The notes beneath the pieces were generated by a model that was not told the DNA's origin, did no database searches, and worked only from the letters and a program-made list of their open reading frames with translations. A DNA stretch of 64,000 nt from assembly GCA_020346185.1 (NCBI GenBank), contig CP070775.1:2950302-3014301 (forward strand), given 5' to 3'. The translations under genes were made by a program, and so were the position numbers. This document shows positions 835 to 21,075 of the stretch, one piece after another; the stretch's first letter is position 1; each line of letters starts with the position of its first letter. Origin of the DNA: Betaproteobacteria bacterium. GTDB taxonomy: Bacteria; Pseudomonadota; Gammaproteobacteria; Burkholderiales; Eutrophovitaceae.

Positions 835-1175
835 CTGGGCTCTCCCCAAATGCTCAAATGTGTAAATCATGTGTCCGGAATCATCTGGGTGTAAGCTATC
901 TTTCGAGAAGGACATTCATGAGCGAGAGCCCACAGGCTAGTTTTCTATTGAGACGCCGTGTAGGCGAGCTAGTGGCTGTTGTTCACTGTTTTTCTTTAGC
1001 TGGCTTGCCTTTGCCGAAATTGAGCGAGTCGCGATTTGCACGTTGTATTTCTTTCAATGGCTGACCTTCATCTAGGAACTACACTACATTATTCGCGTTT
1101 AAACGCCGACAATGTCGCGATATGATGAGATTATCAAATGCTTCTTGTAAGCGAGCTTATTGAGGAGAGCGGGCC

Positions 1176-3305
1176 GTGACTAAGAACAAGGAACGAAAAG
1201 CCAAAACCGTTTCCCCGAGCAAAGCAAAGATGAAGATGCCTCACAAGTCCACGGCTAGCCCAAAGACCGACACATCGGACCTGCCGTTACAAATCCCACC
1301 TGAAGAACTGGCGCATTTGCTATTGAACTCCAGTGGAGAGGGCATCTATGGGATCGACACTAAGGGCGATGCAATTTTCGTGAATGCTGCGTGTGCGCGC
1401 ATCCTCGGCTTCGCGTCCGAGGACGAGCTAATGGGCAAGCACATGCATAACCTAATACACCATACGCGCCCGGATGGAAGCCCGTATCCGGCGGAGGAAT
1501 GCCAGATCTACCAGGCGCTTCGTGAGAAAAAGGGGACCCACGTCGACGACGAGGTCTTGTTCCGTGCCGACGGCACGAGTTTCCCCGCAGAATACTGGTC
1601 TTATCCGATGATCCGCGATGGCGAACTGGTTGGAGCGGTCATAACACTTATCGACATCACTGATCGGCTGCAGATGCACGAGGACATGATTGCAGCACGC
1701 AAACAGGCTGAAAGCGCGAACAAGGCCAAGAGCGCGTTTCTCGCAAACATGAGCCATGAACTAAGAACACCGATGAACGCCATCATCGGTTACTCGGAAA
1801 TGTTGGCGGAGGATGCCGAGGACGAAGGTCTTGACGATATGCTTCAAGACCTCAACAAGATAACGGCAGCCGGTAGACATCTTCTGTCTCTGATCAATGA
1901 CGTTCTCGACCTTTCAAAGATCGAAGCGGGGAAAATGGATCTGCACCTCGAGACCTTCTCGCTCATCGAGATGTTGGATGAGGTTTCGAGCACTGCCGCG
2001 AGCCTGCTCGAGAAAAATGACAACAAGCTCGTGTGTTCGGTATCTGAGGACGTCGGAGAGATGCACGCGGATATGACCAAAATCCGGCAGATTCTCTTCA
2101 ACCTGATCTCGAATGCTGCCAAATTCACCAAGGACGGAACGATCACCCTGCAAGGATCGCGTGAGTTACGCAACGGTTTGGAGTGGATCCGGTTCGTTGT
2201 CAGTGATACTGGCATTGGTATCCCCGACGACAAGATAGATCTCATCTTCAAGGAGTTCTCGCAAGCCGACGAAACCACGACCAGAGACTTCGGTGGTACC
2301 GGTCTCGGCTTGGCGCTAACCAGACGCTTCTGCGAGATGATGGGTGGCACAATCAGCGTGGAGAGCGAGCCAGGTGTTGGTTCGAGGTTCTTTGTTGAGG
2401 TGCCAGCGGTGGTCGAGAAAAAACTTGAGAATCTCGAGAAAGAAGCCGTCATCGAAGAACGTTCTGCGCATACAGAGGCTCTGGACGAAGCGTCCGCGGG
2501 TTCAGCCGCTGCCACATTCAAAGGCAAAGCTAACGACTTTGCAAAGACAATGGTCCTGGTGATTGACGACGAGGCGGATGCGCGCGACCTGCTTCGCCGC
2601 CACCTCGAGAGCGAGGGTTACGCAGTGGTTACTGCCCGCGACGGACACGAGGGACTCGCGGTGGCCGCCAGCTTACGTCCCAGCCTCATTACGCTTGACG
2701 CGATGATGCCGAGAATGGACGGCTGGGCCACGCTCAGGCAACTGAAGGCCAACCCCGAACTCAAACATATTCCTGTGGTCATGGTATCGATCGTAGGCGA
2801 CAAAACGATGAGCTATGCACTCGGCGCCGTCGAGGCGCTGCAAAAGCCGGTGAACCGTAAGCGTCTCGACGCTGTTGTCGCACGTTACGCGCAGAGCCCG
2901 GTGAAGACGGCGCTTGTTGTCGAGGATGATCCCGCTGCACGTTCCATCGTAAAACGCTACCTGGAGTCGGCGAATTGGCACGTCGAAGAGGCGCAAAATG
3001 GCGCGGTCGCCGCCGACAAAGCGAGCACGAGATCGTTCGGACTGATCCTCCTCGACCTGATGATGCCGGTCATGGATGGCTTCGAGTTTCTCCAGCAACT
3101 ACGCCAGGGTAATGGCCCGTCGGCAAAATCACCCGTCGTCGTGGTTACCGCCAAGGATCTCAGCGCTGAAGATCGCGAGCGTTTGTTACAAAGCGTCGAG
3201 CACGTTGTCTCGAAGAGTGGGCGTGACATTGAGGAAGTTATAACCGACGTGCGTAAATCTCTCACCACGATCGGTGTGGAGACCACAAGCGATGGCAATG
3301 CCTAA
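1176..3305 (+). CDS. PAS-domain hybrid sensor histidine kinase with two C-terminal receiver domains
   Basis: GTG start preceded by GAGGAG. PAS-like segment (LLNSSGEGIYGIDTKGDAIFVNAACARILGF...). H-box MSHELRTPMNAIIGYSEMLAED. HATPase N/G boxes (FNLISNAAKFT, DTGIGIP, GGTGLGLAL). Two REC domains (VLVIDDEADARDL...ITLDAMMPRMDG and ALVVEDDPAARSI...ILLDLMMPVMDG). Confidence 0.92.
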   Translation: MTKNKERKAKTVSPSKAKMKMPHKSTASPKTDTSDLPLQIPPEELAHLLLNSSGEGIYGIDTKGDAIFVNAACARILGFASEDELMGKHMHNLIHHTRPDGSPYPAEECQIYQALREKKGTHVDDEVLFRADGTSFPAEYWSYPMIRDGELVGAVITLIDITDRLQMHEDMIAARKQAESANKAKSAFLANMSHELRTPMNAIIGYSEMLAEDAEDEGLDDMLQDLNKITAAGRHLLSLINDVLDLSKIEAGKMDLHLETFSLIEMLDEVSSTAASLLEKNDNKLVCSVSEDVGEMHADMTKIRQILFNLISNAAKFTKDGTITLQGSRELRNGLEWIRFVVSDTGIGIPDDKIDLIFKEFSQADETTTRDFGGTGLGLALTRRFCEMMGGTISVESEPGVGSRFFVEVPAVVEKKLENLEKEAVIEERSAHTEALDEASAGSAAATFKGKANDFAKTMVLVIDDEADARDLLRRHLESEGYAVVTARDGHEGLAVAASLRPSLITLDAMMPRMDGWATLRQLKANPELKHIPVVMVSIVGDKTMSYALGAVEALQKPVNRKRLDAVVARYAQSPVKTALVVEDDPAARSIVKRYLESANWHVEEAQNGAVAADKASTRSFGLILLDLMMPVMDGFEFLQQLRQGNGPSAKSPVVVVTAKDLSAEDRERLLQSVEHVVSKSGRDIEEVITDVRKSLTTIGVETTSDGNA

Positions 3306-3353
3306 GCGCCCAGCACCTGACAATAGCAAACTATCAAAGCGAGACCGATAACA

Positions 3354-4361
3354 ATGACGCCGGAAGAGATTCTCGATGCGCTCCGCTCAGGTGGAGATCG
3401 ATGGCACGAGGTAAAAATATCCCAGGCCGACGCCGCGCTGAATCTGAAAGAGACTGATTTGAGCGAAGCCGATCTGAGTGGTCGGGATCTGTCTGATATC
3501 GACTTCTCCGGCGCCGATTTCTTTCGCGCAAGTCTTCGCGATACAAACCTTAAGGGCTCGTCGCTATCAGGGGCTGATCTCACAAACGCGAATCTCGCTG
3601 GCGCAGGCATGTACAAGAGCAACCTGCGCGATGCAGTCTTTCAAGAGGCCGATCTGAGTGGAGCCGATCTGTCGGAATGCAAATGTTCGGGCGTCGACTT
3701 CAAAGGTGCTGTCCTCCAAGGGACCAACCTGAGCGGCGCGGATCTTCGCGGCGCCAATCTGTCTCACGCTGACCTCCGCGGCGCACGGCTATGCGATGCC
3801 GACGTGACGCGAGCGGATTTCCGGTTCGCTCATCTCGACGGTGCTGACATGACCCGCGCACACTATGGCGGCTATAAGGCAATGACAGGCCGGTTCTACG
3901 GTGTACGAGGAATCGACAGCGCTTATGGCAATGCCCTCTTCGTGCGCGATGCCAAGGATCAGGATTACATCGACACGCTGTTCCAGACGATTCAGGAAAA
4001 ACCCGATGGCTGGGTAAAACGCCTCGACCGTTGGCTGTTTGCTGCATGGGCGCTGATCGATCACGGCCGCAGTCTGGCTAAAGTTAGCCTCTATGCCGGC
4101 ATCATCGCGAGCCTTTACGGCCTGATCTACACCTTTGACATGCGGATGGGCTGGGGCATGATGGACTATTCTAACTCGGCGCAGAGTTGGTTCACGCCTT
4201 TTTATTATTCGATGGTTACTTACACCACCCTCGGTTATGGTGACGTGACCGCGGAAAGCCTCGTGGGCGAAGTCCTGGTTATTAGCGAGGTAGTCATCGG
4301 CTACTTCACGCTCGGATTACTACTCTCAATATTGGCAAACACAATAGCCAGAAGAAGCTGA
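3354..4361 (+). CDS. Pentapeptide-repeat domain fused to a 2TM K+-channel-type pore (Ion_trans_2-like)
   Basis: The N-terminal ~170 aa are A(D/N)LSGADL-type pentapeptide repeats. The C-terminal part has hydrophobic helices flanking the selectivity-filter sequence TTLGYGD (nt 4224-4244). Confidence 0.85.
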   Translation: MTPEEILDALRSGGDRWHEVKISQADAALNLKETDLSEADLSGRDLSDIDFSGADFFRASLRDTNLKGSSLSGADLTNANLAGAGMYKSNLRDAVFQEADLSGADLSECKCSGVDFKGAVLQGTNLSGADLRGANLSHADLRGARLCDADVTRADFRFAHLDGADMTRAHYGGYKAMTGRFYGVRGIDSAYGNALFVRDAKDQDYIDTLFQTIQEKPDGWVKRLDRWLFAAWALIDHGRSLAKVSLYAGIIASLYGLIYTFDMRMGWGMMDYSNSAQSWFTPFYYSMVTYTTLGYGDVTAESLVGEVLVISEVVIGYFTLGLLLSILANTIARRS

Positions 4362-4368
4362 GATCGAC

Positions 4369-6375
4369 CTAGTTTCTCGGGTCGTCGAAACCGTTCTTCC
4401 AGTGTGTCCCGTCGCAAAACGGTTTGTTTGTCGAACCGCCGCAGCGGCATAGCGTATACCGGGCGCTTCCCGCCCCCTCGCACCACTCTTCCACATGAAG
4501 CGGAATATTCTGAACTTCGTAAGGCCCATTCTTGATAATACCGATGTTCGGTCGCTCGGGAGGAACGGGACCGAGTTTTCCATTGAACGTGTACCGAAGT
4601 GCTCCTGAAGGACAACTGGCGATCACCTCCATGAGTTCGTCCGGGCGGGCCCGGTCAGGTTGGATCCAGGGCTTTTCACCTTTCCGGAAAACTTTGGCCA
4701 TTCTCTCGGAGCATCGCTCGGCGGACGCACACTGCAACAGGTTGTAGTGCACAGTGATTTCAGATCCCACATAGTCTCTCACGCCATCAACCGTTCTGTT
4801 GGGGCTCCTCTCACTGGAAAAACCGATACGCGCATGGGTGCCGTCACAGAACGGTTTGTTCGCAGACGCTCCGCAGCGACACAAAGCCATCTCTGGATGC
4901 GTGGAAAGATTCTTTCCTTTCGAATTGGTTAGATGCTCGACATTTTTTGCCAGGTAAGGTCCGTCGCCGAGCGGCTTGACGCTGGTGCCTTGCCCGGCTT
5001 CGATCGATTTGAATTCCTTCTCCTCCGTTCGCGCACTCAAGCGCGGTTCGCGCAACGCGAAGCGCTCGCTGAGTTCCTGCAAGGCAGCTACCGCCTCCTC
5101 GACGTCCGCCGGAACATCCGGATTGGTCGCTATCAACTCGGTGCCGGTCCTCGCGACATTATGAAGCCGTTCAGCGAACACGATCCAGGCAGAGCGCTTG
5201 TGCGGTAACAGTTGTATTTCGCGCGTATAGCCAAAACCTGGCCCCGCCGCCATACCCGGGTATTCAGAGCCTGCGGGCAGCTTCGTCAACGCCTCGCCCA
5301 GGGGACGCAAGACTGATGTCATCAATAGCAGAGTTGCATCTGCAAGTTTCTTCAGTTCAGAGTCAGTTTCCTCAGTATGCGCAAAGAACCGAAGCAGCAT
5401 GAGCAGCATTGTTTCGTAGGCAACATTGAAAAGGTCCGCGACTTCATGCGTCACCGGGTCCGTAATCAACGTGCCACCGACGCTATCCTCGTAGTAGCGC
5501 GTCATCGGATTGGAAACGATCTTGCGCACCGGATCAAACATGCCGCCATTCGCCTCGGCCTCATGCGCGGCAGTTTCATATTCTCGGCGAATAGCGTCAA
5601 AGACCATGAAATGCGCATCCGGATGTAAAGCAGAAGGAGCCTCGCCTTGTTCGATAATCATTTCGATCGCGGCGATGGCAGAATCACGGTCGGTGACTTC
5701 GAGCAACGACTCCTCAAAATCAAGGTATCGCGCGTTCGCTTGGGCATCTCGGGGGCCAATAAAAAGCTCTTCCTCCGGAATGTTTCTGAAGCCTGTTTCT
5801 ATCTTGTGATAGAGCTCTCCGATAGTCGAAAAATCGATATCGTACGGTTCGAGGCCAAGGAGCGGCGCATTGGCGTACTTTTTCTTTTGTGTGGTATCTC
5901 CACGCGCAGCGATGCGAGCCGCGACGGCATTCATTTCTCTTTGTTGATCCGAGTCGAGAACACCCGGCTCGGGCATCTCGTAACCAATCAGTCGTTCTAT
6001 CGTTGCCAATGAAAACGGCTCGAGCGCGAGTTTTATCCCGAACGGAAACGCATCAGCAGCCATCGGAAAGTTGGCTCGCTTCAGATGCGGAGCTCCGCCG
6101 ATTGCTGTCAACAGATTGGCTACCTGCGCCAGGTGCAACATCTCCTCGCGCGACACCATAGACAGACGCTGCTTCCAGTTAAGCACCATCTTGAGTTGCT
6201 CGGGGGTGAGGCCGCCTTCGCCGATCTGGCTCTTCAACGAATGTGCAGCAAACAGATAGATGCATGATGCGCCGTGTTCGATCTCGGCCGCGCGCGACAG
6301 AAGATAGATCAGTTCTTCGCGCGTATTGACGGGAGCGATGTTCGACCTATCGATTGCGGCTGATTTTTTCTCCAT
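4369..6375 (-). CDS. Ferritin-like domain protein with C-terminal CDGSH / mono-cluster ferredoxin-like / CDGSH iron-sulfur modules
   Basis: 668 aa. The N-terminal ~440 aa are helical with a ferritin-like signature (AEIEHGASCIYLFAAHSL, EEMLHLAQVANLL). There are two CDGSH motifs (CRCGASANKPFCDGTH, CRCGGSTNKPFCDGTH) flanking a Cys-containing insert (LLQCASAERC...IASCPSGAL). SD GAGGGGTGGG lies before the ATG. Confidence 0.8.
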   Translation of the reverse strand: MEKKSAAIDRSNIAPVNTREELIYLLSRAAEIEHGASCIYLFAAHSLKSQIGEGGLTPEQLKMVLNWKQRLSMVSREEMLHLAQVANLLTAIGGAPHLKRANFPMAADAFPFGIKLALEPFSLATIERLIGYEMPEPGVLDSDQQREMNAVAARIAARGDTTQKKKYANAPLLGLEPYDIDFSTIGELYHKIETGFRNIPEEELFIGPRDAQANARYLDFEESLLEVTDRDSAIAAIEMIIEQGEAPSALHPDAHFMVFDAIRREYETAAHEAEANGGMFDPVRKIVSNPMTRYYEDSVGGTLITDPVTHEVADLFNVAYETMLLMLLRFFAHTEETDSELKKLADATLLLMTSVLRPLGEALTKLPAGSEYPGMAAGPGFGYTREIQLLPHKRSAWIVFAERLHNVARTGTELIATNPDVPADVEEAVAALQELSERFALREPRLSARTEEKEFKSIEAGQGTSVKPLGDGPYLAKNVEHLTNSKGKNLSTHPEMALCRCGASANKPFCDGTHARIGFSSERSPNRTVDGVRDYVGSEITVHYNLLQCASAERCSERMAKVFRKGEKPWIQPDRARPDELMEVIASCPSGALRYTFNGKLGPVPPERPNIGIIKNGPYEVQNIPLHVEEWCEGAGSARYTLCRCGGSTNKPFCDGTHWKNGFDDPRN

Positions 6376-6515
6376 TTCCCACCCCTCAAGGAAAACAACT
6401 GCATTGACAATGAATGAAGTATCTGCGCGAGAAGCACGCCTAATTCCTCGCAGTCTTATTATCGACCGACAAGCTCAACGGATGCCCGTACTCCACGCTG
6501 CACGTAAGCCCGCGT

Positions 6516-6884
6516 TTACTCTGTGTCGAGGAGCGCGTCGATTTTACCCAGCAACCTAGTGAAATCGACCGGCTTGGTGTCGTAGTCATCGCACCCGGCA
6601 CCGAGCGCTTTTTCCTTGTCGCCCGCCATTGCGTGTGCGGTTAGCGCTATTATGGGTATTCCCTTTGTCGTGGCAGTCTTCTTGATATTTGCCGCAGCCT
6701 CCCAACCATCCATTACGGGCAGGCTCATATCCAGCAAGATAATATCTGGAGCCTGTTCGCTGGCCATATCGACGCCCTGCTTCCCATCAAAAGCCATCAC
6801 GACCTCGAATCCCTTTTTCTTGAGCCGTCGCGATAGCATATCCCGGTTCATTTCGTTGTCTTCGACCAAAAGGACTTTCGCCAC
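6516..6884 (-). CDS. Stand-alone CheY-like response regulator receiver
   Basis: 122 aa, GTG start with AGGAG upstream. VLLVEDNEMNRDML...IILLDMSLPVMDG...ALTAHAMAGD...DYDTKP is a complete REC domain with no output domain. Confidence 0.92.
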   Translation of the reverse strand: MAKVLLVEDNEMNRDMLSRRLKKKGFEVVMAFDGKQGVDMASEQAPDIILLDMSLPVMDGWEAAANIKKTATTKGIPIIALTAHAMAGDKEKALGAGCDDYDTKPVDFTRLLGKIDALLDTE

Positions 6885-6956
6885 TTCAATTCTCCTGTCT
6901 TGTTATCATCGGCCACCATTCGTAGCGCGCCCTAGGGCCGGGCGCCTCAATGACTT

Positions 6957-8471
6957 TCAGCTGTCCGTGTTTCCCGCGGTTTGGGGTAAGGCTACCAGCT
7001 TCTTCTCGAGCAACTTCCTGAGGTGCATGTCGATCATCGTTTCGAATTCTTCCGCAGTGCCAAATGTGTGGAACGCGCCCGCGTACGAGCCGTCTTCATT
7101 GACCAGCCAGTGGTCAATGTAGCGCCGGAGTTTCTCGATCTGATCAAGGCGGTCTATTACCGTCGCCTTGTCCGCCAGCGAAATCGTGGGTGCCCCTTCC
7201 TTGCGATAAAGCAGGATCTCGGGTTTTCCGGTTTCCCGAAAACTGCGCATCGCGTCCTCAAACTCGAAAGCTGTACCAGAGTCATAGCGGCTTCCGTCCG
7301 GACGGCGAATAGACGCTGGCAATGGCGACCCGATTCGCGACCAGAGAATACCGACATAAACCTCGGTCTCGTGCGGTGGGTGGATCTGGGCCTGAAATGT
7401 CTCGGAAGCAAACATTGGCTCCTCCTCCCAAAGGATCGGGATAAGGTAGGCACGCCCGGAAAACTCTTCGTTGAGGCGACCGATTACTGCTTTCACGATT
7501 TGCCGCTCGGCAATTACGTCACCGGGGGACGATATGAATACTCTGAACTGCCGGGCAACATTGCGCCGCAGCCGGACCTTCTCCAGACAGGCGCTGATGC
7601 GAGCCTTGAGAAGAATAGGATTGAACGGCTTGAACACGTAATCCTCGGCACCATGCAGGATGCAGTCGACCATTGTGTCGATGTCATCGGCCGCCGAGAG
7701 CATGATCACCGGGATTGTTCGCAGCCTTGGCGATGCCTTGAGACGTTCAAGTGTTTCCAGTCCTGATAAACCGGGCATCATGAGGTCCAGCAGGATTAAA
7801 TCGAATCGTCGGTTCACAAGAATGGCGAGCGCCGCCTCGCCACTTTCGGCAACAGTCATGGCATAGCCGCTTCTTGTAAGCCGCCGTGCCAATAACTCGC
7901 GGTTTGCCGGGTCGTCGTCGACAACAAGAATTTCACCGCCTTGCCCGATCAACGATTCAAACTGCTCCCCTTGCAGTTTTGGACTTGCAGCAGATGCCGG
8001 CGCGTAGAAGGTGGTTACCTGTTTTCCCGAGATCGGTTCACCGTGCGCTTCGAGAAGCCTTGCACCGATTTCCTCGACGAGACCAAGCATGGTCTTGCTG
8101 GCGGCGGCGATGTGGCCAAGATCGCCAACCAGATCCTCGTTTCCGTTATCCAGTGCCTCTTCGCGCAGTATCTCGGCATATCCGGCAATATGGTTCAATT
8201 GCACCCGCATCTGGTACTGGGCATCCGAGACATTGATGTCATCCAAAGACTCCTTGGTCGCACTCAGATGATCATCGATCAATCCCAGTAACCTTTGGCC
8301 CGCAACCTGAATCGCCTGAAGATCACCGGTCAGGGTCTGGGTACTGGCTTCGTCGAGGTCCTCTTCCAGCATTTCTGCATAGCCGATGATGTGCCCGACT
8401 GGCGTGCGCAGGTCATGGCGAAGCGTCGACAGCCATTTTCCGAACCCGTCATTTGTCACTGCACCCGCCAT
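6957..8471 (-). CDS. Response regulator with two N-terminal ATPase-less DHp/HisKA-like modules, a REC domain and a C-terminal DUF4062 / nucleoside 2-deoxyribosyltransferase-like (TIR-related) output domain
   Basis: The track ORF 6957-8816 has an implausible N-terminal extension overlapping the upstream gene. I start at ATG 8471 (MAGAVTNDGF...), 4 nt after the upstream stop, giving 504 aa. DHp-like 1: LRHDLRTPVGHIIGYAEMLEED...DLQAIQVAGQRLLGLIDD. DHp-like 2: VQLNHIAGYAEILREEA...DLGHIAAASKTMLGLVEE. REC at aa 180-300 (ILVVDDDPANREL, LILLDLMMPGLSG, KPF). C-terminal domain aa ~309-425 begins RVFISSPGDVIAERQ and contains DSGTAFEFEDAMRSFRETGKP (nt 7257-7283 for DSGTAFEFE). Confidence 0.8.
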   Translation of the reverse strand: MAGAVTNDGFGKWLSTLRHDLRTPVGHIIGYAEMLEEDLDEASTQTLTGDLQAIQVAGQRLLGLIDDHLSATKESLDDINVSDAQYQMRVQLNHIAGYAEILREEALDNGNEDLVGDLGHIAAASKTMLGLVEEIGARLLEAHGEPISGKQVTTFYAPASAASPKLQGEQFESLIGQGGEILVVDDDPANRELLARRLTRSGYAMTVAESGEAALAILVNRRFDLILLDLMMPGLSGLETLERLKASPRLRTIPVIMLSAADDIDTMVDCILHGAEDYVFKPFNPILLKARISACLEKVRLRRNVARQFRVFISSPGDVIAERQIVKAVIGRLNEEFSGRAYLIPILWEEEPMFASETFQAQIHPPHETEVYVGILWSRIGSPLPASIRRPDGSRYDSGTAFEFEDAMRSFRETGKPEILLYRKEGAPTISLADKATVIDRLDQIEKLRRYIDHWLVNEDGSYAGAFHTFGTAEEFETMIDMHLRKLLEKKLVALPQTAGNTDS

Positions 8472-8475
8472 GAGT

Positions 8476-10257
8476 TTATCCGGCCGCCGGTGGTTCGTGT
8501 TCCCGGTGGAAGCGATGGATTGTCCACTGGAAGGTTTCCAGCAATGATCGCTCCGCCAGATTTGCGGTAATTTCGGCTCTTGCCCCGTCGTCGATTTCGT
8601 TGGCGAGTCGTGCCGCGGCCGAGCGAAAGAACGCCCGCTGGTTCGAGTACTGCCAAAGGAGTTCCCGGGTTGCCATTTTGTTCTGGTATATCTCCCAGAT
8701 CGCCAGCCACAGCGGTAGAAGTCCCATAGCGAACACCAGCAAGGTCTTTCCGTCGAGGCCAGCCACCTCGAAACTGGTGATGCTCTTGTAGAAAAAAAGA
8801 AGTGCCAGTGCGCCAAGAAACGCAGCGACGAACAACAAGAGCTTTACCTTCTCGAGTCGCTCATGCTGGGAATGAAGCTGATGGAGCTTGCGTTCGAAAT
8901 ATCCCGATTGTTCGGAGATCCAGCGGTCACGCGCAGCGTTCAGTCGCGTTCGCTCCGGGACATCACTTTCGTAGTAGAGCGGTTCCGAACACCGGATCGC
9001 ATCGCGCAACCATTCGAAACCACCGAAATGGTCAACACTTGTCGAACCGAGTATCCGATTGAAACTGATCCGGTCACCCACGCCCGACAGCGTCACGAAA
9101 AATCTCGTGCGCATTGTTTCCGCCAATGCCCGATACGCAAGGTGGCGCCCGAACCAGCCTTTCTTTAGGCTGAGCATAAAAATCAGAAACCCGAGTGCGA
9201 ACACTAGGACGTAACCCGCGAGGAAAATCTTCAGGGCGGCGAGTTTCGCGTAGACAAGGAACAACAGTCCCATCGTCCCGGCCATGATGCCAGATGCCTT
9301 GAACAGGCGGTCAGATTGTTTCTGGTTAGCGATTGCAACCTGGTCGGCGCGCGTATATTCCCGGTCGATCGCCGGGCACAATGGCGCGACTTCTGCGTCC
9401 CCATCAGCAGACAGCGGATAGGTCGGAACGTCCGCACCGAGACCTGAAAACCGCTCAATGGCGTAGCGATCCAGGCCCGCCCATCGTTCCAGTACAGGTA
9501 CCGGCATCTCGCTGCGCTTTACGATCAGCCCACGAGCGCCACCGGATAAGAGAAAGCTTGTATCGATAGCATCTACTTTTCCCGCTGGGCTGAGGCGCGG
9601 ACACCTTATCCAGACGACGACATTGCCGTTTTCGTCACCAAGATCATCATCTTCATGCACGCTTACGTTGCTCATATCGGGCCTGGCCTCTGTTGATCCG
9701 GCCAGGTAACTGATGACGACATCGGATGAGCCTCCTTGCAGCCCGTTTGCTTCGCCATCCCACAACGCAACCAGTACATTGGAGCGTCTTACCAGGTAAT
9801 TCATCAGTCGCGCGTAGAGCGCGTCGCGAGCGCTACCGTCGCGTACTTGATCTGCATCACTTCCATCGGGAAGCCGGATTTCTTCAAGCTGTATGCGAGG
9901 GTCGTTGGCGAGTGCGCGAAATCTTTCAAGCGCTTCACCAGAGAAATCCGCTTCGTAAATCCGACGCGGCATGGGCAATACCGCCCGGACCGCCAGACCG
10001 AGTTCGAGGGCTACTTCGGTAGCGACTGTGTCGGCACCTTCCGCAAGGCCGCTCACGATCTCGATTGGCATTGCCGTGACACTTTTCTGCAGCCGTCCAA
10101 GTTCAGATTTCAGACGGGCTCGGATTTCCGGCAAATGCCTCGGGTCACAATCACGGTGACCAGTCACCCCAATCGAAAAGACGAAGCAACCGCCCCTTTT
10201 CTGGCTATCTCCCTGGACGGGCGTTACTCTGCCCGATTCACCGCTCGTCGCGTTCAC
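8476..10257 (-). CDS. SLOG-like (YpsA/DprA-LOG-like Rossmannoid) domain fused to two SLATT-like 2TM membrane modules
   Basis: 593 aa, GTG start. N-terminal FSIGVTGHRD...VSGLAEGADTVATEVALELG...VLVALWDGEANGLQGGSSDVV matches the GxTGHR / G-A-x-G-A-D / W-D-G...GG pattern of SLOG-type domains. Four hydrophobic helices lie at aa 323-340, 343-364, 472-490 and 505-523. Each pair is preceded and followed by amphipathic helices (WISEQSGYFERKL...; WEIYQNKMATRELLWQYSNQRAFF), as in SLATT modules. Confidence 0.7.
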   Translation of the reverse strand: MNATSGESGRVTPVQGDSQKRGGCFVFSIGVTGHRDCDPRHLPEIRARLKSELGRLQKSVTAMPIEIVSGLAEGADTVATEVALELGLAVRAVLPMPRRIYEADFSGEALERFRALANDPRIQLEEIRLPDGSDADQVRDGSARDALYARLMNYLVRRSNVLVALWDGEANGLQGGSSDVVISYLAGSTEARPDMSNVSVHEDDDLGDENGNVVVWIRCPRLSPAGKVDAIDTSFLLSGGARGLIVKRSEMPVPVLERWAGLDRYAIERFSGLGADVPTYPLSADGDAEVAPLCPAIDREYTRADQVAIANQKQSDRLFKASGIMAGTMGLLFLVYAKLAALKIFLAGYVLVFALGFLIFMLSLKKGWFGRHLAYRALAETMRTRFFVTLSGVGDRISFNRILGSTSVDHFGGFEWLRDAIRCSEPLYYESDVPERTRLNAARDRWISEQSGYFERKLHQLHSQHERLEKVKLLLFVAAFLGALALLFFYKSITSFEVAGLDGKTLLVFAMGLLPLWLAIWEIYQNKMATRELLWQYSNQRAFFRSAAARLANEIDDGARAEITANLAERSLLETFQWTIHRFHREHEPPAAG

Positions 10258-10685
10258 ATGTCTTTTCCAGCTTGTTGCATACCTTGCGGCGCACTAATTG
10301 CGATCACATCGCCGAGTTAGACCGCCAAAACGGGTGCGAACCCAGCGATTGCCTCAGCGCTGATTATCCACACTTTCTCGGCCTTTGCGACTGCAGCAAT
10401 CAGCGCCAACAGAGACTTCGAATGTCCTGATGTCGGCACAGCCCGCGACTGGCGCCTTAAACATGCGGACTCGCCACGCTACTGCCATTTTCTCCTACGT
10501 TACATAAGAGCAGCACGGACTAGACCCAGAACATCAACAGCGCCGGCGATACCAGCGCCGTCGATCATTCTCGGTTCCACTTCACCACTACCCACCAGAA
10601 AGGCAAAGCACGGCAAGTGCCCCTTAGCGGTTCGAATGCGTCGCCAAATACTTATAGCCGCTGACGGCAGACAGCCGTAGACGGG

Positions 10686-11333
10686 CTAGGTCATCTTCGA
10701 AACAACTTCGTCGGTCGTGACCACCGATTCAGCCATGAAACGGAAGTTAGTCATCGCCGCCTGATAACCATCACCAAGCTCTGGATGTTGCGCTGCCGCA
10801 GTGGCATCCGCCACCACGGTCACCTCAAATCCATCCTCGAGGAGTTGGCGCATATGCGCTTCGACACAGAGATTTGCGGACATACCGGCCAGAATCACCT
10901 TGCTTTTGCCGCGCTTGCGAAGCTGCAAAGCAAGATCGTTCGTCTCGGGCCCATACACTTTGTGCGGGCTGACAACGACAGTCTTGCCGTCATTAATGTA
11001 AGGCTTCAGGCTATCAAGCCAATCGGCCCCGGAACCCTCAAAACCCTCAGTCGTAAGGGCGCCTTTGCGATCGAACATATTAATTTCGTGCATCATTTTC
11101 TCCACCGTCCCACCGAACTTCCAGCCATGGTCGGTCGGATAGTAGTAGTGCGGTGAAATGAACACGTCATACCCCTTACTTTGAGCGCTCTTAAGCAGCG
11201 CCTCGATGTGCTCGACGGTGCCATTGGCTTCAACGCTCTTGCCGACCAACCCCCACGTCACGCCCTTGGGGCTGAGAAAGTCGTTTTGAGGATCGATGAC
11301 AACAACCGCAGTGTCCTTTGAATTCACGTCCAT
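10686..11333 (-). CDS. Isochorismatase-family cysteine hydrolase
   Basis: 215 aa. TAVVVIDPQNDFLSPKG, KSKVILAGMSANLCVEAHMR (catalytic Cys context). AGGAG SD upstream. Confidence 0.85.
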   Translation of the reverse strand: MDVNSKDTAVVVIDPQNDFLSPKGVTWGLVGKSVEANGTVEHIEALLKSAQSKGYDVFISPHYYYPTDHGWKFGGTVEKMMHEINMFDRKGALTTEGFEGSGADWLDSLKPYINDGKTVVVSPHKVYGPETNDLALQLRKRGKSKVILAGMSANLCVEAHMRQLLEDGFEVTVVADATAAAQHPELGDGYQAAMTNFRFMAESVVTTDEVVSKMT

Positions 11334-11891
11334 TTCGTTCTCCTGTTAGGTCATCACTTCTAGTGCATTGCTTGTTAAGCAGCGATGGTGTCTTTAGAAA
11401 AGTTTACGTTCTGAGATCAAATTCGGATTCTGCTTGGTGCACCAATCTAGTAGAAGAACTGCCGCCGGATTCGTGCCGCTGGGTTTCGCGCGCCACAGCC
11501 CGACACAGTTTGACATAGTACCCGCATACCCAATAATTCGATCAGACGAGTACTGATTTTCATTTCCACACCGCCAGACTTGAGAGTCAAGGCCAAGGCA
11601 TCCGCATCCGGGAGACCTCATTTTTCAGGGCATGATTGCTAGTCACGCGATGACCATCGGGAAATACTCGCACTTTGATCTGCCCACGGACAAACCATAT
11701 GATAATAATGAGGATTTGTGTGTTGACTCAAAGCAGGCCGCCGAGACATCCCGCCACGGGTCGCCACAAAACCGGGTAAGCCGGCGCCGAAACCATTGTT
11801 CCGAGCACCAGATTTACGAGGTCACCGTGTGTAACTAACATGACACACCTCCTCGGCCATTGTGGACCTTTTCTGGTGTGTCCGCAAAATC

Positions 11892-12130
11892 AGGGTAAAA
11901 CCTGAATGGTTACAGTCGCTTGATCTCGAGCATTACGCCCGGGCCTTCGCCGACAACGATCTTGATCCGGAGTTCGCGGCCAGTGTTTCTGATGAAGACT
12001 TGAAGAGTTCGCTGTATCCTCAATGCACCAGCGCGAGAAACTGCCCACGGCAGTATCGCTATCGGGCCAACAAGCCGCTCCCCCACCTACGGGTGCTACA
12101 CAACGTGTGACATTTGAGTTCTTTCAGAAG
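11892..12130 (+). pseudogene. Fragment of a SAM (sterile-alpha-motif)-domain protein, probably the N-terminus of a SAM-adenylate-cyclase/ATPase-type gene; frameshifted and truncated
   Basis: EWLQSLDLEHYARAFADNDLDPEFAASVSDEDLKS resembles bacterial SAM-domain N-termini. The continuation (MHQREKLPTAVSLSG...) is only readable in another frame, and no downstream catalytic domain exists. Confidence 0.4.
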
Positions 12131-12200
12131 TGCAGGTCGTTTGCTCATCAGACTGGGCATGCCCGATACCCGAAGCCGCTTCGTGCGGTCGTCAATAACC

Positions 12201-12928
12201 TTATTGTTGTTGCACCAGCACACCCAAAACCGTTTCGATGGTGCGCACAACCTCTTCGGATTTCTGTGGATCAAGCACATCAGGATGCGGTGACGCAAAC
12301 TCACGTTTGTCGTCGTCGAGATACTGGCTGGAGGCAGCCGCGAATTCATCTGCCAGAGCTGCGCGCGTGAGGATCTCTGCGCCGACTCGTATATCACCAC
12401 CGGCCACGCCGAAGCCTGTTTTCACGATTTTGCTGCCAAGCAGTGACCCGAGGGTTCATCGCGATGATGGGCCAGCCCCTCATCGCGTGACAGCGCCAGT
12501 TTGCTTTGCGCATGGGCGTCCATATCGTCCAGCTTGACCCGCCCGGATACTCCAAGCAGCGGCAAAAGCCGCTTTGTCAGCAGATAAGGGGCGATCTTAT
12601 TGACCGCGAACCGGACATCAAATCTGTCGTCGGTGACGGAATTGGGCGTTTTGAAGATGCCTGCATTGTTGATCAGTACATCAAGTATTGCGTACTTTTC
12701 GGCTACCGCGTTCGCAAGTGCCGCGACATCGGCAAAGCGCGACAGATCGGCCACGTAGCTTTCAACGCGCCCCTCACCTTGCTAGCGCAGAGAGCGCTGT
12801 TTTCCATGCCTCCAGTTTTGCCGAGTTGGACCGTGCAGCAGCACATTGTGTCCCTGCGAGACCAGTATCGTCGCCGTTTCCAAACCGATGCCGTCGGTCG
12901 AATCGGTAACAAAAATGGTTTTCTGCAT
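12201..12928 (-). pseudogene. Short-chain dehydrogenase/reductase, disrupted (premature stop, frameshifts, internal deletion)
   Basis: Manual translation from ATG 12928: MQKTIFVTDSTDGIGLETATILVSQGHNVLLHG... then a stop. Other frames continue with ADLSRFADVAALANAVAEKYAILDVLINNAGIF...RFAVNKIAPYLLTKRLLPLLGVSGRV and a C-terminal piece KTGFGVAGGDIRVGAEILTRAALADEFAAASSQYLDDD...DPQKSEEVVRTIETVL. The pieces sit in three frames, and the catalytic YxxxK region appears to be missing. Confidence 0.75.
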
Positions 12929-12960
12929 AATTTTTGTCCGCTCCAATATCGAGAGCGAAC

Positions 12961-19890: not shown

Positions 19891-21075
19891 ATGTGTTTTT
19901 CCAGATTGAGTCTTGTCGTTACTTTTTCCCTGGCACTGCAATCCTGTGCGTCAGTTGCCCCGCGTAATGCTGTGCCGGAAGAACTGGTAGGCGAGGCGAT
20001 GGTGCTGCCCGGGACCCATGCGCGTATGTGGGGTGACGTGGCACCCGAGAACTTCGACGAACTGGTAGAAATATTCCGGCAACAATTAGTCCGCGATGGT
20101 GGTGATGAGGCTCTTTCGCTGCCGCGAAACATGCTGTTGATCTCCGGTGGTGGCGCGAATGGCGCCTTTGGTGGCGGTTTGCTAAAGGGCTGGACCGAGT
20201 CTGGCACGCGTCCTGAGCTGACTATCGTGACTGGCATCAGCACTGGCGCGTTGATCGCACCGTACGCGTTTCTCGGCAGCGACTATGACGACGAGTTGGA
20301 AATGCTCTATACGACGCTGTCCACGAAAGACATTGTCAAGGAGCGCCCACTGTTAGCGGGATTGAGAGGCGACGCGTTGGCGGATACGAGGCCGCTGCGC
20401 GAACTGCTTCGGAACCGCGTTGACGAAGCCATGATCGCGGAGATTGGGATTGAGCACGAGAAGGGCCGCCGCCTTTTGATCGGCACCACCAACCTCGACG
20501 CCAAGCGGCCGGTGATCTGGAATATCGGCGCAATTGCTGCGGAAGGGACAGAAGAGTCCGCGCAGTTGATTCGAGATGTCATGCTAGCGTCAGCCTCAAT
20601 CCCCGGACTATTTCCACCGGTGAGGATCAACGTCCGAGTCGGTGACCGCACGTATGATGAATTGCACGTAGATGGTGGAGTGGCCAGTCAGGTGTTTCTG
20701 TACCCGGCGCAGGTTGACCTGAAGGAATCTGCCCGAACGGTCGGAACCGAGGGAAAGCTTACGATGTATGTCATTCGCAACAGCATCCTTGCGCCGCGCT
20801 GGTCCGAAGTCAAACCTAAAGTCGGACCAGTGGCACTCGCGTCGATCTCGACTTTGATTCGCACCCAGGGTATGGGCGACCTGTATCGGCTTTACCTGGG
20901 GGCGAAGCGTGATTCAATTAGCTTCCGGCTCGCTTACATTCCTGAAACGTTCGATCTGGAACCCGAAGAAGAATTTGATCCGAAGTACATGAAGGCGCTA
21001 TTCGATCTGGGTTACAACATGGCGCGGGATGGTTATGAATGGGAAAGGTCTCCGCCAGGTGTTGCGTTGCCGTGA
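19891..21075 (+). CDS. Patatin-like phospholipase, lipoprotein
   Basis: Lipobox LALQSC. Oxyanion motif ISGGGANGAFGGGLL, nucleophile elbow GISTGALIA, and a DGG motif (HVDGGV). Confidence 0.9.
   Translation: MCFSRLSLVVTFSLALQSCASVAPRNAVPEELVGEAMVLPGTHARMWGDVAPENFDELVEIFRQQLVRDGGDEALSLPRNMLLISGGGANGAFGGGLLKGWTESGTRPELTIVTGISTGALIAPYAFLGSDYDDELEMLYTTLSTKDIVKERPLLAGLRGDALADTRPLRELLRNRVDEAMIAEIGIEHEKGRRLLIGTTNLDAKRPVIWNIGAIAAEGTEESAQLIRDVMLASASIPGLFPPVRINVRVGDRTYDELHVDGGVASQVFLYPAQVDLKESARTVGTEGKLTMYVIRNSILAPRWSEVKPKVGPVALASISTLIRTQGMGDLYRLYLGAKRDSISFRLAYIPETFDLEPEEEFDPKYMKALFDLGYNMARDGYEWERSPPGVALP

Follow-up and report, generated by a model that had tools for sequence, protein, structure and literature searches.

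The 64,000-nucleotide stretch of Betaproteobacteria bacterium DNA analyzed here (GenBank assembly GCA_020346185.1, contig CP070775.1, positions 2,950,302 to 3,014,301; hereafter the window, whose coordinates are used throughout) contains three minus-strand genes, labeled g1, g2 and g3, that lie head to tail with intergenic gaps of 4 nt (g1-g2) and 72 nt (g2-g3). The first encodes a SLOG domain joined to a membrane region of SLATT-like hairpins, the second couples a receiver (REC) domain to a DUF4062 domain related to the TIR fold, and the third encodes a single CheY-like receiver. An earlier note on this DNA had proposed that g1 and g2 form an enzyme-effector pair similar to the Thoeris anti-phage systems but wired to a two-component relay. 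The three co-directional open reading frames (ORFs) are present as it described them, g3 is indeed a plain stand-alone receiver, and all of the quoted motifs can be found: GVTGHRD, GLAEGADTVA and WDG..GG in g1, and LILLDLMMP, RVFISSPGDVIAER, DSGTAFEFEDA and GKP in g2. The conserved unit, however, is larger than these three genes, a wider module having been missed in that first reading. It is a cassette of six genes occupying positions 1176-10257, in the order hybrid kinase, ion channel, ferritin-like/CDGSH protein, g3, g2 and g1 (Table 1).

Table 1. Genes and domains of the six-gene cassette, in window coordinates (TM, transmembrane helix; DHp, dimerization and histidine phosphotransfer domain)
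Feature	Position	Strand	Remarks
g1: SLOG, small β domain and 4-TM region (two SLATT-like 2TM hairpins)	8476..10257	-	593 aa
g1 SLOG domain (DprA/LOG-like Rossmannoid), aa ~25-190	9688..10185	-	Invariant TGHRD, GxAxGAD, W-G...G
g1 first 2TM unit, aa ~294-392	9082..9378	-	TM ~322-340 and 344-365; SLATT_3/DUF4231-like
g1 second 2TM unit, aa ~435-587	8497..8955	-	TM ~472-492 and 504-524; SLATT_1-like, then invariant tail HREHEPPAAG
g2: DHp (HisKA, no ATPase)-REC-DUF4062	6957..8471	-	504 aa from ATG; same architecture in P0204
g2 HisKA/DHp domain	8247..8444	-	Invariant H-box (R18-H19...T23-P24); Pfam HisKA E 4e-14; 37 orthologs
g2 receiver domain	7596..7931	-	Pfam E 1.8e-30; D185/D186, acceptor D229, S259, K281
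g2 DUF4062 TIR-like domain with helical C-terminal extension, aa ~306-495	6987..7556	-	Predicted catalytic E403
g3: single-domain CheY-like receiver	6516..6884	-	122 aa; Pfam REC E 2e-26; co-conserved in 29 loci
Ferritin-like + 2x CDGSH + Fer4_19 iron-sulfur protein	4369..6375	-	668 aa; co-conserved (cluster 7)
Pentapeptide-repeat domain with K+-channel pore (Ion_trans_2)	3354..4361	+	Co-conserved in 18 loci (cluster 5)
Hybrid histidine kinase, PAS-HisKA-HATPase_c-REC-REC	1176..3305	+	709 aa; family (cluster 2) in 30/80 loci

The g2 protein is composed of three modules, of which the earlier note had recognized the receiver and the DUF4062-type C-terminal domain while missing the HisKA/DHp domain at the N-terminus. 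The R18-H19 pair and P24 of the H-box of this domain are invariant across the 37 orthologs, and no Pfam match to HATPase_c exists anywhere in g2. Because it carries a HisKA domain with His19 but lacks an ATPase domain, g2 is no kinase by itself, whereas the neighboring 709-aa protein is a complete hybrid kinase. The receiver residues listed in Table 1, which supply the acidic pocket, phosphoacceptor, Ser/Thr and Lys expected of such a domain, are conserved in the g2 orthologs. The longest ORF of g2 extends back to position 8816 and so overlaps g1; its orthologs begin at the ATG at 8471.

The C-terminal module of g2 is a DUF4062 domain, related to the TIR and nucleoside deoxyribosyltransferase (NDT) folds, and is predicted from its sequence to cleave nicotinamide adenine dinucleotide (NAD+). 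Residues 310-407 match Pfam DUF4062 (PF13271) at E 0.0027 in the whole protein and at 5.7e-4 as an isolated domain, the latter scoring 20.5 bits, below the Pfam cut-off of 24.7, and the same model is matched by 36 of 39 aligned relatives of the domain with a best E of 1.3e-11. A profile of the domain family searched against the PDB returned the solved DUF4062 domain of human TEP1 (E 9e-4), and no Pfam match to canonical TIR, TIR_2 or ThsB_TIR was obtained in g2. An AlphaFold 2 model of the module (pLDDT 89.4) contains five strands alternating with helices, followed by two long helices. Foldseek pairs the enzyme domain with a TIR-STING protein (9lmq) and the TIR domain of RPS4 (4c6t/4c6r) at probabilities of 0.99-1.0; the 2026 DUF4062 structures are absent among the matches listed. 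The residues F312-I-S-S315, D318, E322, R323, W348, R379, G381, G399 and E403 do not vary among relatives linked to REC, cNMP or STAND modules. E403, which opens helix αC, is invariant in both the 39 diverse relatives and the 37 REC-type orthologs, in keeping with the NDT/TIR-related catalytic-glutamate motif pointed out beforehand. Alignment of hidden Markov models (HMMs) pairs the TAFE sequence of g2 with TEME of TEP1 and sets E403 opposite the second Glu, residue 115 of chain 11gz_A, which would be the catalytic E1008 of TEP1 if this 220-residue chain represents residues 894-1113 of the 886-1113 construct. Among PADLOC models, the candidate PDC-S60 is also matched by the domain (E 4e-9).

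The N-terminal domain of g1 adopts, according to its AlphaFold 2 model (pLDDT 84.6), the SLOG fold, as had been proposed. Foldseek returned DprA (3uqz), ShosA (8zva) and LOG-like proteins (1rcu/1wek, TM1055, TT1465) at probabilities of 0.95-1.0, with superpositions of ~4.7-5 Å root-mean-square deviation over ~160 columns. The SLOG-type Pfam matches are partial and below cut-offs, with DprA found in 17 of 27 g1 orthologs (best E 9.3e-7) and YAcAr in 11 of 27 (best 3.9e-6). g1 also matches the PADLOC ShosA model at E 1.5e-5, and nothing significant was returned when its profile was searched against PDB sequences. The conserved core opens at F27-xIGVTGHRD, and a GGTSD motif of g1 resembles the LOG motif GGxGTxxE. 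The true start of the gene probably lies between nt 10257 and ~10216, likeliest at a GTG 10-14 codons downstream of 10257, because the first ~20 residues are unconserved, the orthologs starting later, and the model shows residues 1-19 as disordered. The closest relative, from a JGI metagenome, is 98% identical.

Beyond a small β-rich domain (aa ~195-270), the hydropathy profile of g1 reveals four hydrophobic helices, which form two hairpins embedded within long helices. The NCBIfam SLATT_3 model matches g1 of the window marginally (E 0.022, aa 301-384), and at E<=0.01 the 27 orthologs yield SLATT_3 in four cases and SLATT_1 in two. The link to SLATT is provided by a homolog (L085:11388-13181) that aligns end to end with g1 (E 4e-60, 28% identity). 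In this homolog, Pfam SLATT_1 covers the second hairpin with E 1.6e-5 and 25.3 bits against a cut-off of 26.3 (profile positions 9-122 of 122), and the first hairpin gives weak DUF4231 (E 0.011) and SLATT_3 matches, while UniRef labels three g1 orthologs as SLATT-domain proteins. The topology of the two units described earlier fits SLATT, with this homolog as the bridge, but they are not detectably copies of one another in sequence: hhalign gave a probability of 1.8% and no significant alignment. The protein ends in a near-invariant tail, W..R.HREHEPPAAG (8479-8526, minus strand; aa 578-593), kept in alpha- and gammaproteobacterial orthologs, and the HRE part of this tail is still present in the 28%-identical STAND-linked homolog.

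In 185,579 species genomes, a pattern scan identified 188 relatives of g1, 80 of which were taken with 8-kb flanks. A g2-type domain is present in 29 of the 31 Rhodobacterales-type loci, the exceptions (L010, L028) being cases in which the locus ends within ~0.8 kb of g1 or only the N-terminal part of g2 is present. In most of the Rhodobacterales-type loci measured, the g1-g2 distance ranges from −4 to +8 nt. Pairwise identities of g1 and of g2 correlate with r = 0.93 across 21 loci, so that the proposed co-occurrence of REC-DUF4062 and SLOG-2TM genes across genomes is borne out. In Colwelliaceae the genes are kept but reordered, as kinase-CheY-g2-[ion channel]-g1. Clustering of all flanking ORFs placed the kinase, pentapeptide/K+-channel and ferritin-like/CDGSH genes of the window in gene families that accompany g1-g3. 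Because gene order differs in other genomes, the set of six genes appears to be under selection, beyond mere synteny. Together, these observations make it very probable that g1 and g2 are functionally coupled. None of the three computational outcomes that the earlier note had named as fatal to its proposal, namely a C-terminal fold outside DUF4062/TIR, a partner outside SLOG or a lack of co-conservation, was obtained. Some genomes contain g1 twice: in Colwellia sp. 12G3 a complete kinase-CheY-g2-g1-channel cassette stands at each of two loci (L039, L044), and two g1 homologs each occur in the metagenome-assembled genomes CSMAG_194 (L032, L075) and GP_16 (L065, L070).

The companion genes give some indication of what the cassette might respond to. 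The hybrid kinase family occurs in 23 of the 31 Rhodobacterales-type loci, and the gene at 1176-3305 is the probable input kinase of the cassette. The window kinase, with one PAS domain before its core, is much shorter than its orthologs, which reach ~850-1480 aa and carry GAF/PAS_7 or HAMP/TM sensor regions. An ion-channel gene accompanies 26 of the 31 loci and is drawn from three different families. The pentapeptide-K+ type travels with the cassette in 18 loci and is replaced in others by an MscS-like channel bearing a cNMP-binding domain (16 loci) or by a 6TM Ion_trans channel (9 loci). The ferritin-like protein, with its two CDGSH fingers and weak similarity to the C-terminal part of VioB, is found with the cassette in 11 loci and might provide a redox or iron input or act as an accessory. 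In one subgroup (group A; L001, L005-L008, L013 and others), one or two Amt genes and a gene for a PilJ-domain protein lie 3-6 kb downstream of g1, along with genes identified by eye as GSII-like (type II glutamine synthetase), GltB-like (glutamate-synthase domain) and SulP-like; this set points to an ammonium or nitrogen input. The hybrid kinase, the DHp domain of g2 with His19 and the terminal receiver are encoded together, as the putative parts of a multi-step phosphorelay. No histidine phosphotransfer (HPt) protein was seen among the annotated co-conserved gene clusters, for which reason the DHp domain is proposed as the second histidine of the relay.

Outside this lineage the SLOG-SLATT protein is found with other enzymes. 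In Steroidobacteraceae and other gammaproteobacteria, g1 homologs stand directly beside other NAD-cleaving proteins. A DUF4062-nSTAND1-TPR gene adjoins the g1 homolog in five loci (L051, L053, L057, L068 and L085, the last via P0211), and its N-terminal module is the same as the C-terminal domain of g2. A TIR-TPR gene takes this place in six loci, and a SIR2-TIR gene with an nSTAND1 NTPase in one (L045). Because other lineages pair SLOG-SLATT with these alternatives, the pairing of a TIR-like enzyme with SLOG-SLATT is independent of the receiver, and its occurrence with four architectures of NAD-cleaving enzyme agrees with the expectation for a producer and its receptor. In several gammaproteobacterial loci, the enzyme gene, of TIR or DUF4062 type, is separated from the g1 homolog by a further protein with no significant Pfam match (L061:5507-7861 and L069:3718-6072, 784 aa; L040:5694-6908, 404 aa), and the similarly placed L085:9823-11271 (482 aa) has only a sub-threshold Lectin_C match (E 0.008). 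These intervening proteins may be third components of the STAND- and TIR-linked versions.

The origin of the enzyme module can be sought among its own relatives. A profile search of the g2 DUF4062 module against 1.84 billion representatives recovered 13,541 relatives, 2,128 of them at E<=1e-30. The best of these are almost all N-terminal on STAND proteins of 900-2,300 aa, nSTAND1 with TPR or WD40 repeats and some with FHA. The 190-aa DUF4062 and helical module of g2 is ~45-50% identical to this nSTAND1 NTPase N-terminal domain, and the DHp-REC form accounts for ~5 full-length proteins (~486-530 aa) among the top 150 representatives. Judging by these sequences, the REC-linked enzyme is a rare and derived rewiring of an effector domain that is usual in STAND conflict systems, and the module appears to descend from STAND/TIR conflict systems in which this pairing of enzyme and partner is also used. 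A group of ~330-aa cNMP_binding-DUF4062 proteins (P0135-P0145; L081:8001-8999, L083:5717-6709) has lost the receiver while keeping its α5/linker helix, LLKARIxACLEKV. Retention of this helix after loss of the receiver suggests that it transmits the signal.

The genomic context bears on whether the cassette serves defense or physiology. PADLOC at E<=1e-10 gave ~7 matches among 103 non-redundant flanking ORFs of 23 REC-type loci, too few for these to be counted as defense islands, and the flanks of the cassette in the window consist of metabolic genes. Searches of 50,697 phage genomes and 2.9 million IMG/VR contigs returned no g1 relatives, and none of full length was found on 72,556 plasmids, where four distant SLOG-only matches were seen. 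The siting in defense islands raised by the earlier note is therefore not supported, although one STAND-linked relative does lie within a clear defense island (L084). The cassette is chromosomal. It has evidently been transferred horizontally, because Neptuniibacter and Rhodobacterales share the same gene order. At three loci the cassette is bordered by transposase genes that were recognized by eye as IS6-family (L003:3133-3840; L009, with three copies; L026), in line with its horizontal movement as a whole. The scarcity of PADLOC matches in the flanks and the lack of g1 relatives in the phage, viral and (at full length) plasmid collections favor a signaling route over suicide defense, as do the stable companions, a sensor kinase, ion channels and genes related to nitrogen or redox. 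A physiological signaling role is thus preferred over defense, with moderate rather than strong conviction; compared with abortive infection of the classical anti-phage kind, the context is a better fit to ion, ammonium or redox homeostasis or to a growth arrest that can be reversed.

DUF4062 domains have been characterized as TIR-like NADases that convert NAD(P)+ to ADP-ribose (ADPR) or its phosphate, ADPR(P), and nicotinamide, with catalytic residues E97 in KpSwz and E1008 in TEP1, and TIR-type enzymes, KpSwz and TEP1 included, require oligomerization for activity (10.64898/2026.05.01.722283). The SLOG domain of type I Thoeris senses 3' cyclic ADPR (3'cADPR) and the SLATT effector of type VII responds to cyclic ADPR (10.64898/2025.12.03.692087), SLATT having been predicted to be a permeability effector regulated by ADP-ribose derivatives (PMC9503650). 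On this background a mechanism for the cassette can be proposed in which the hybrid kinase would phosphorylate its own receiver domains, His19 of the g2 DHp domain would act as a histidine phosphotransfer step, as in Spo0B and ChpT, and the phosphoryl group would pass to Asp229 of g2, with the g3 CheY protein serving as a phosphate sink or branch. The phosphorylated receiver would then act through the linker helix on a dimer held by the DHp domain and repack the DUF4062 domains into an active oligomer, in which Glu403 would cleave NAD+ to nicotinamide and ADPR or an ADPR-derived product. This product would bind the SLOG domain of g1, and the ligand-bound domain would switch the two SLATT-type hairpins, altering membrane permeability or potential. 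This chain, running from phosphorelay through NAD+ cleavage and an ADPR-type ligand to SLOG-gated permeability in a physiological role, is the account adopted here, with a confidence somewhat short of even. We infer the direction from signal to receptor, the activity of the enzyme and the identity of the ligand. More tentatively still, ADPR or a derivative might serve as an ordinary, non-immune second messenger, the product of a phosphorelay-switched DUF4062 enzyme gating the SLOG-SLATT channel alongside K+-, MscS- and Amt-type channels and so setting membrane potential or ion and ammonium flux. Conceivably, and with equal reserve, such a messenger would be a prokaryotic counterpart of ADPR-to-TRPM2 signaling and the pair an immune (STAND/TIR) effector co-opted for sensing the environment.

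Several observations weigh against this mechanism. The single-sequence DUF4062, SLOG and SLATT HMM scores of the window proteins all lie below curated cut-offs, and the template-modeling (TM) scores of the Foldseek matches to the g2 enzyme domain are modest (0.41-0.53), generic flavodoxin-like folds scoring similarly. The activity of the REC-linked DUF4062 subfamily is predicted from its relatives, and three of the four human DUF4062 proteins are inactive in vitro (10.64898/2026.05.01.722283). As the sole product of the characterized DUF4062 enzymes is ADPR, an ordinary metabolite, it would make a poor private signal. About half of the g1 homolog loci, mostly from soil gammaproteobacteria and Steroidobacteraceae, have no TIR-like gene within 8 kb, and no SLOG-SLATT neighbor was found beside the cNMP-DUF4062 relatives. 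An HPt-like function for the DHp domain is purely inferred. Finally, the sporadic distribution of the cassette (the 188 matches among the species genomes scanned), its horizontal transfer and its occasional flanking by insertion sequences also fit a defense or accessory element.

These last points lead to an explanation that retains the same circuit but assigns it to anti-phage abortive infection, the kinase sensing envelope or metabolic stress induced by infection and the SLOG-SLATT protein killing the cell. The characterized DUF4062 systems (Swarozyc, Evangelion) and the TIR+SLOG and TIR+SLATT pairs are all defensive, and the nSTAND1 effector domain so similar to that of g2 is the dominant form of the family. 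The PDC-S60 match, the nSTAND1-type relative in a defense island, the sporadic distribution and the IS6 genes near three loci would also suit such a role. It is nonetheless considered unlikely, given that transport and nitrogen-metabolism genes, with few PADLOC matches among them, surround the REC-type loci, that g1 relatives are missing from phages and viral contigs and full-length ones from plasmids, and that the association with a kinase and an ion channel is stable in both alpha- and gammaproteobacteria. The high sequence conservation, with invariant motifs that reach beyond the catalytic sites, argues in the same direction.

Other explanations dispense with the diffusible ligand or with the enzyme. 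The two proteins could be coupled without a signal-to-receptor order if the DUF4062 domain depleted NAD+ as the terminal output, or if SLOG were itself a LOG-like catalyst acting on the DUF4062 product, with the membrane protein working in parallel or upstream, for instance by feeding membrane status to the relay. KpSwz and TEP1 do work by hydrolyzing or depleting NAD+ with no special messenger, both enzymes (LOG) and DNA-binding proteins (DprA) belong to the SLOG superfamily, g1 has the GGTSD motif resembling that of LOG, and the cNMP-DUF4062 relatives manage without a SLOG-SLATT partner. This arrangement is distinctly unlikely when set against the placement of SLOG-SLATT beside four architectures of NAD-cleaving protein, a pattern that would suit a protein dedicated to receiving their product, the sensor and effector roles of SLOG and SLATT in Thoeris and the tight translational coupling of g1 and g2. 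Lower still in probability, and by a good way, is a catalytically silent DUF4062 domain that would serve as an oligomerization or docking module, phosphorylation gating g1 by protein-protein contact. The DUF4062 domains of NWD1, NWD2 and NPHP3 lack NADase activity in vitro, TIR-type domains are classic adaptor modules and the TIR and SLOG folds are related (PMC7159879), but the invariance of the predicted catalytic Glu and of D318, E322, R323, W348 and R379 in REC-, cNMP- and STAND-linked forms would be unexpected of structural adaptors. A fortuitous adjacency of unrelated two-component and membrane genes, for which nothing speaks other than the weak individual HMM scores, is refuted by the occurrence of the pair in more than 40 loci, in several orders and with gaps of a few nt, by the co-divergence of the two proteins and by the retention of the gene set through rearrangements, the window included; its probability is negligible.

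The ferritin-like/CDGSH gene runs in the same direction as g1-g3 and is separated from them by a 140-nt gap. An Rfam scan of the whole window gave no matches, and a promoter and terminator scan of 900-11500 gave counts at or below the expectation from shuffled sequence. An isochorismatase-family gene upstream (10686-11333) was considered as a PncA-type nicotinamidase of NAD salvage and rejected, as it has only weak biuret-hydrolase/RutB-type matches and is not co-conserved with the module. It is followed by ~1.6 kb (11334-12960) without an ORF of at least 180 aa on either strand and without an Rfam match. A patatin-like protein at 19891-21075 (plus strand) weakly matches the model of the CBASS cGAMP-activated phospholipase (31.5 bits against a cut-off of 200) and is probably a generic patatin.

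To our knowledge, NAD-derived signals made by bacterial TIR-family enzymes have so far come only from phage defense, where the enzyme itself senses infection. If the proposed mechanism is true, NAD-derived messengers would join the outputs of two-component systems, beside cyclic di-GMP (c-di-GMP). Phosphorylation, or BeF3, would then offer a tractable on-switch for studying the activation of DUF4062 and other TIR-like domains, and g1 would be a natural SLOG-SLATT protein with testable ligand and pore properties. In evolutionary terms, an immune effector pair would have been re-used for physiology, or the reverse. Should the cassette instead be defensive, kinase-triggered Thoeris-like immunity would represent a new mode of infection sensing.

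The architecture appears to be undescribed, as the earlier note had supposed. Literature searches on DUF4062, on SLATT with SLOG, on SMODS with SLATT and TIR, and on response regulators with TIR and NADase returned no REC-DUF4062 / SLOG-SLATT system. Of the two DUF4062 preprints, one describes the NADase activity cited above and the second the Evangelion (Eva01) defense family; neither mentions REC, SLOG or SLATT. The SLOG and SLATT families themselves were reportedly defined by Burroughs et al. in 2015. The closest relatives in logic are the Thoeris systems of type I (ThsB TIR with ThsA SIR2-SLOG) and type VII (TIR with ThsH SLATT), with which the cassette shares a TIR-superfamily enzyme, a partner bearing SLOG and/or SLATT-like modules and, on the proposed mechanism, the progression from enzyme to NAD-derived ligand to effector. 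As in Thoeris, the genes for the partner effector and the enzyme are neighbors, a conserved pairing in which g1 precedes g2 by 4 nt. The Thoeris enzyme is a canonical TIR, whereas that of the cassette is a DUF4062 domain; the former is a phage sensor, whereas the latter forms the output of a DHp-REC protein that a histidine kinase would feed. A single protein here combines, moreover, SLOG with two SLATT-like units, and the cassette is not located in defense islands.

Swarozyc (KpSwz), Evangelion (Eva01) and human TEP1 share the Pfam family and the catalytic Glu of g2, whose helical extension after the DUF4062 domain resembles the helical stalk of KpSwz. They act as single-gene defense proteins or as parts of the vault, and either concentration or an auxiliary domain at the C-terminus activates them; in g2, by contrast, the regulatory DHp-REC region stands at the N-terminus, and a SLOG-SLATT gene serves as its dedicated partner. 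The DUF4062-nSTAND1-TPR/WD40 NTPases (PDC-S60 type) have the same module, and some are encoded beside g1 homologs; they are regulated by a STAND ATPase with repeat sensors, and the g2 form by phosphorelay. TRPM2-type channels offer a further likeness to g1 in having a cytosolic SLOG-fold region (MHR1-2) N-terminal to a transmembrane permeation module and ADPR as a plausible ligand. Foldseek matches of g1 to TRPM4 and TRPM2 are weak (probability 0.3-0.54, TM-score ~0.2), so this is analogy only. TRPM2 is a 6TM tetrameric channel while g1 has two 2TM hairpins, and homology beyond the SLOG fold is unsupported.

On the regulatory side, Spo0B and ChpT are four-helix-bundle DHp proteins that keep a conserved His, lack a functional ATP-binding domain and act between a hybrid kinase and a receiver. 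The DHp domain of g2, by contrast, is fused in cis to a receiver and an enzyme domain, and its role in phosphotransfer is predicted. In the REC-GGDEF proteins PleD and WspR, phosphorylation of the receiver drives oligomerization-dependent activation of a messenger-making enzyme domain, and sequence searches show the receiver of g2 to be similar to that of PleD. Here NAD+ glycohydrolysis would take the place of c-di-GMP synthesis as the output, and the receptor would be a membrane protein of the same operon. The cassette therefore joins the receiver-controlled messenger enzymes typified by PleD with TIR-to-SLOG/SLATT signaling, and is a new variant of Thoeris-like logic.

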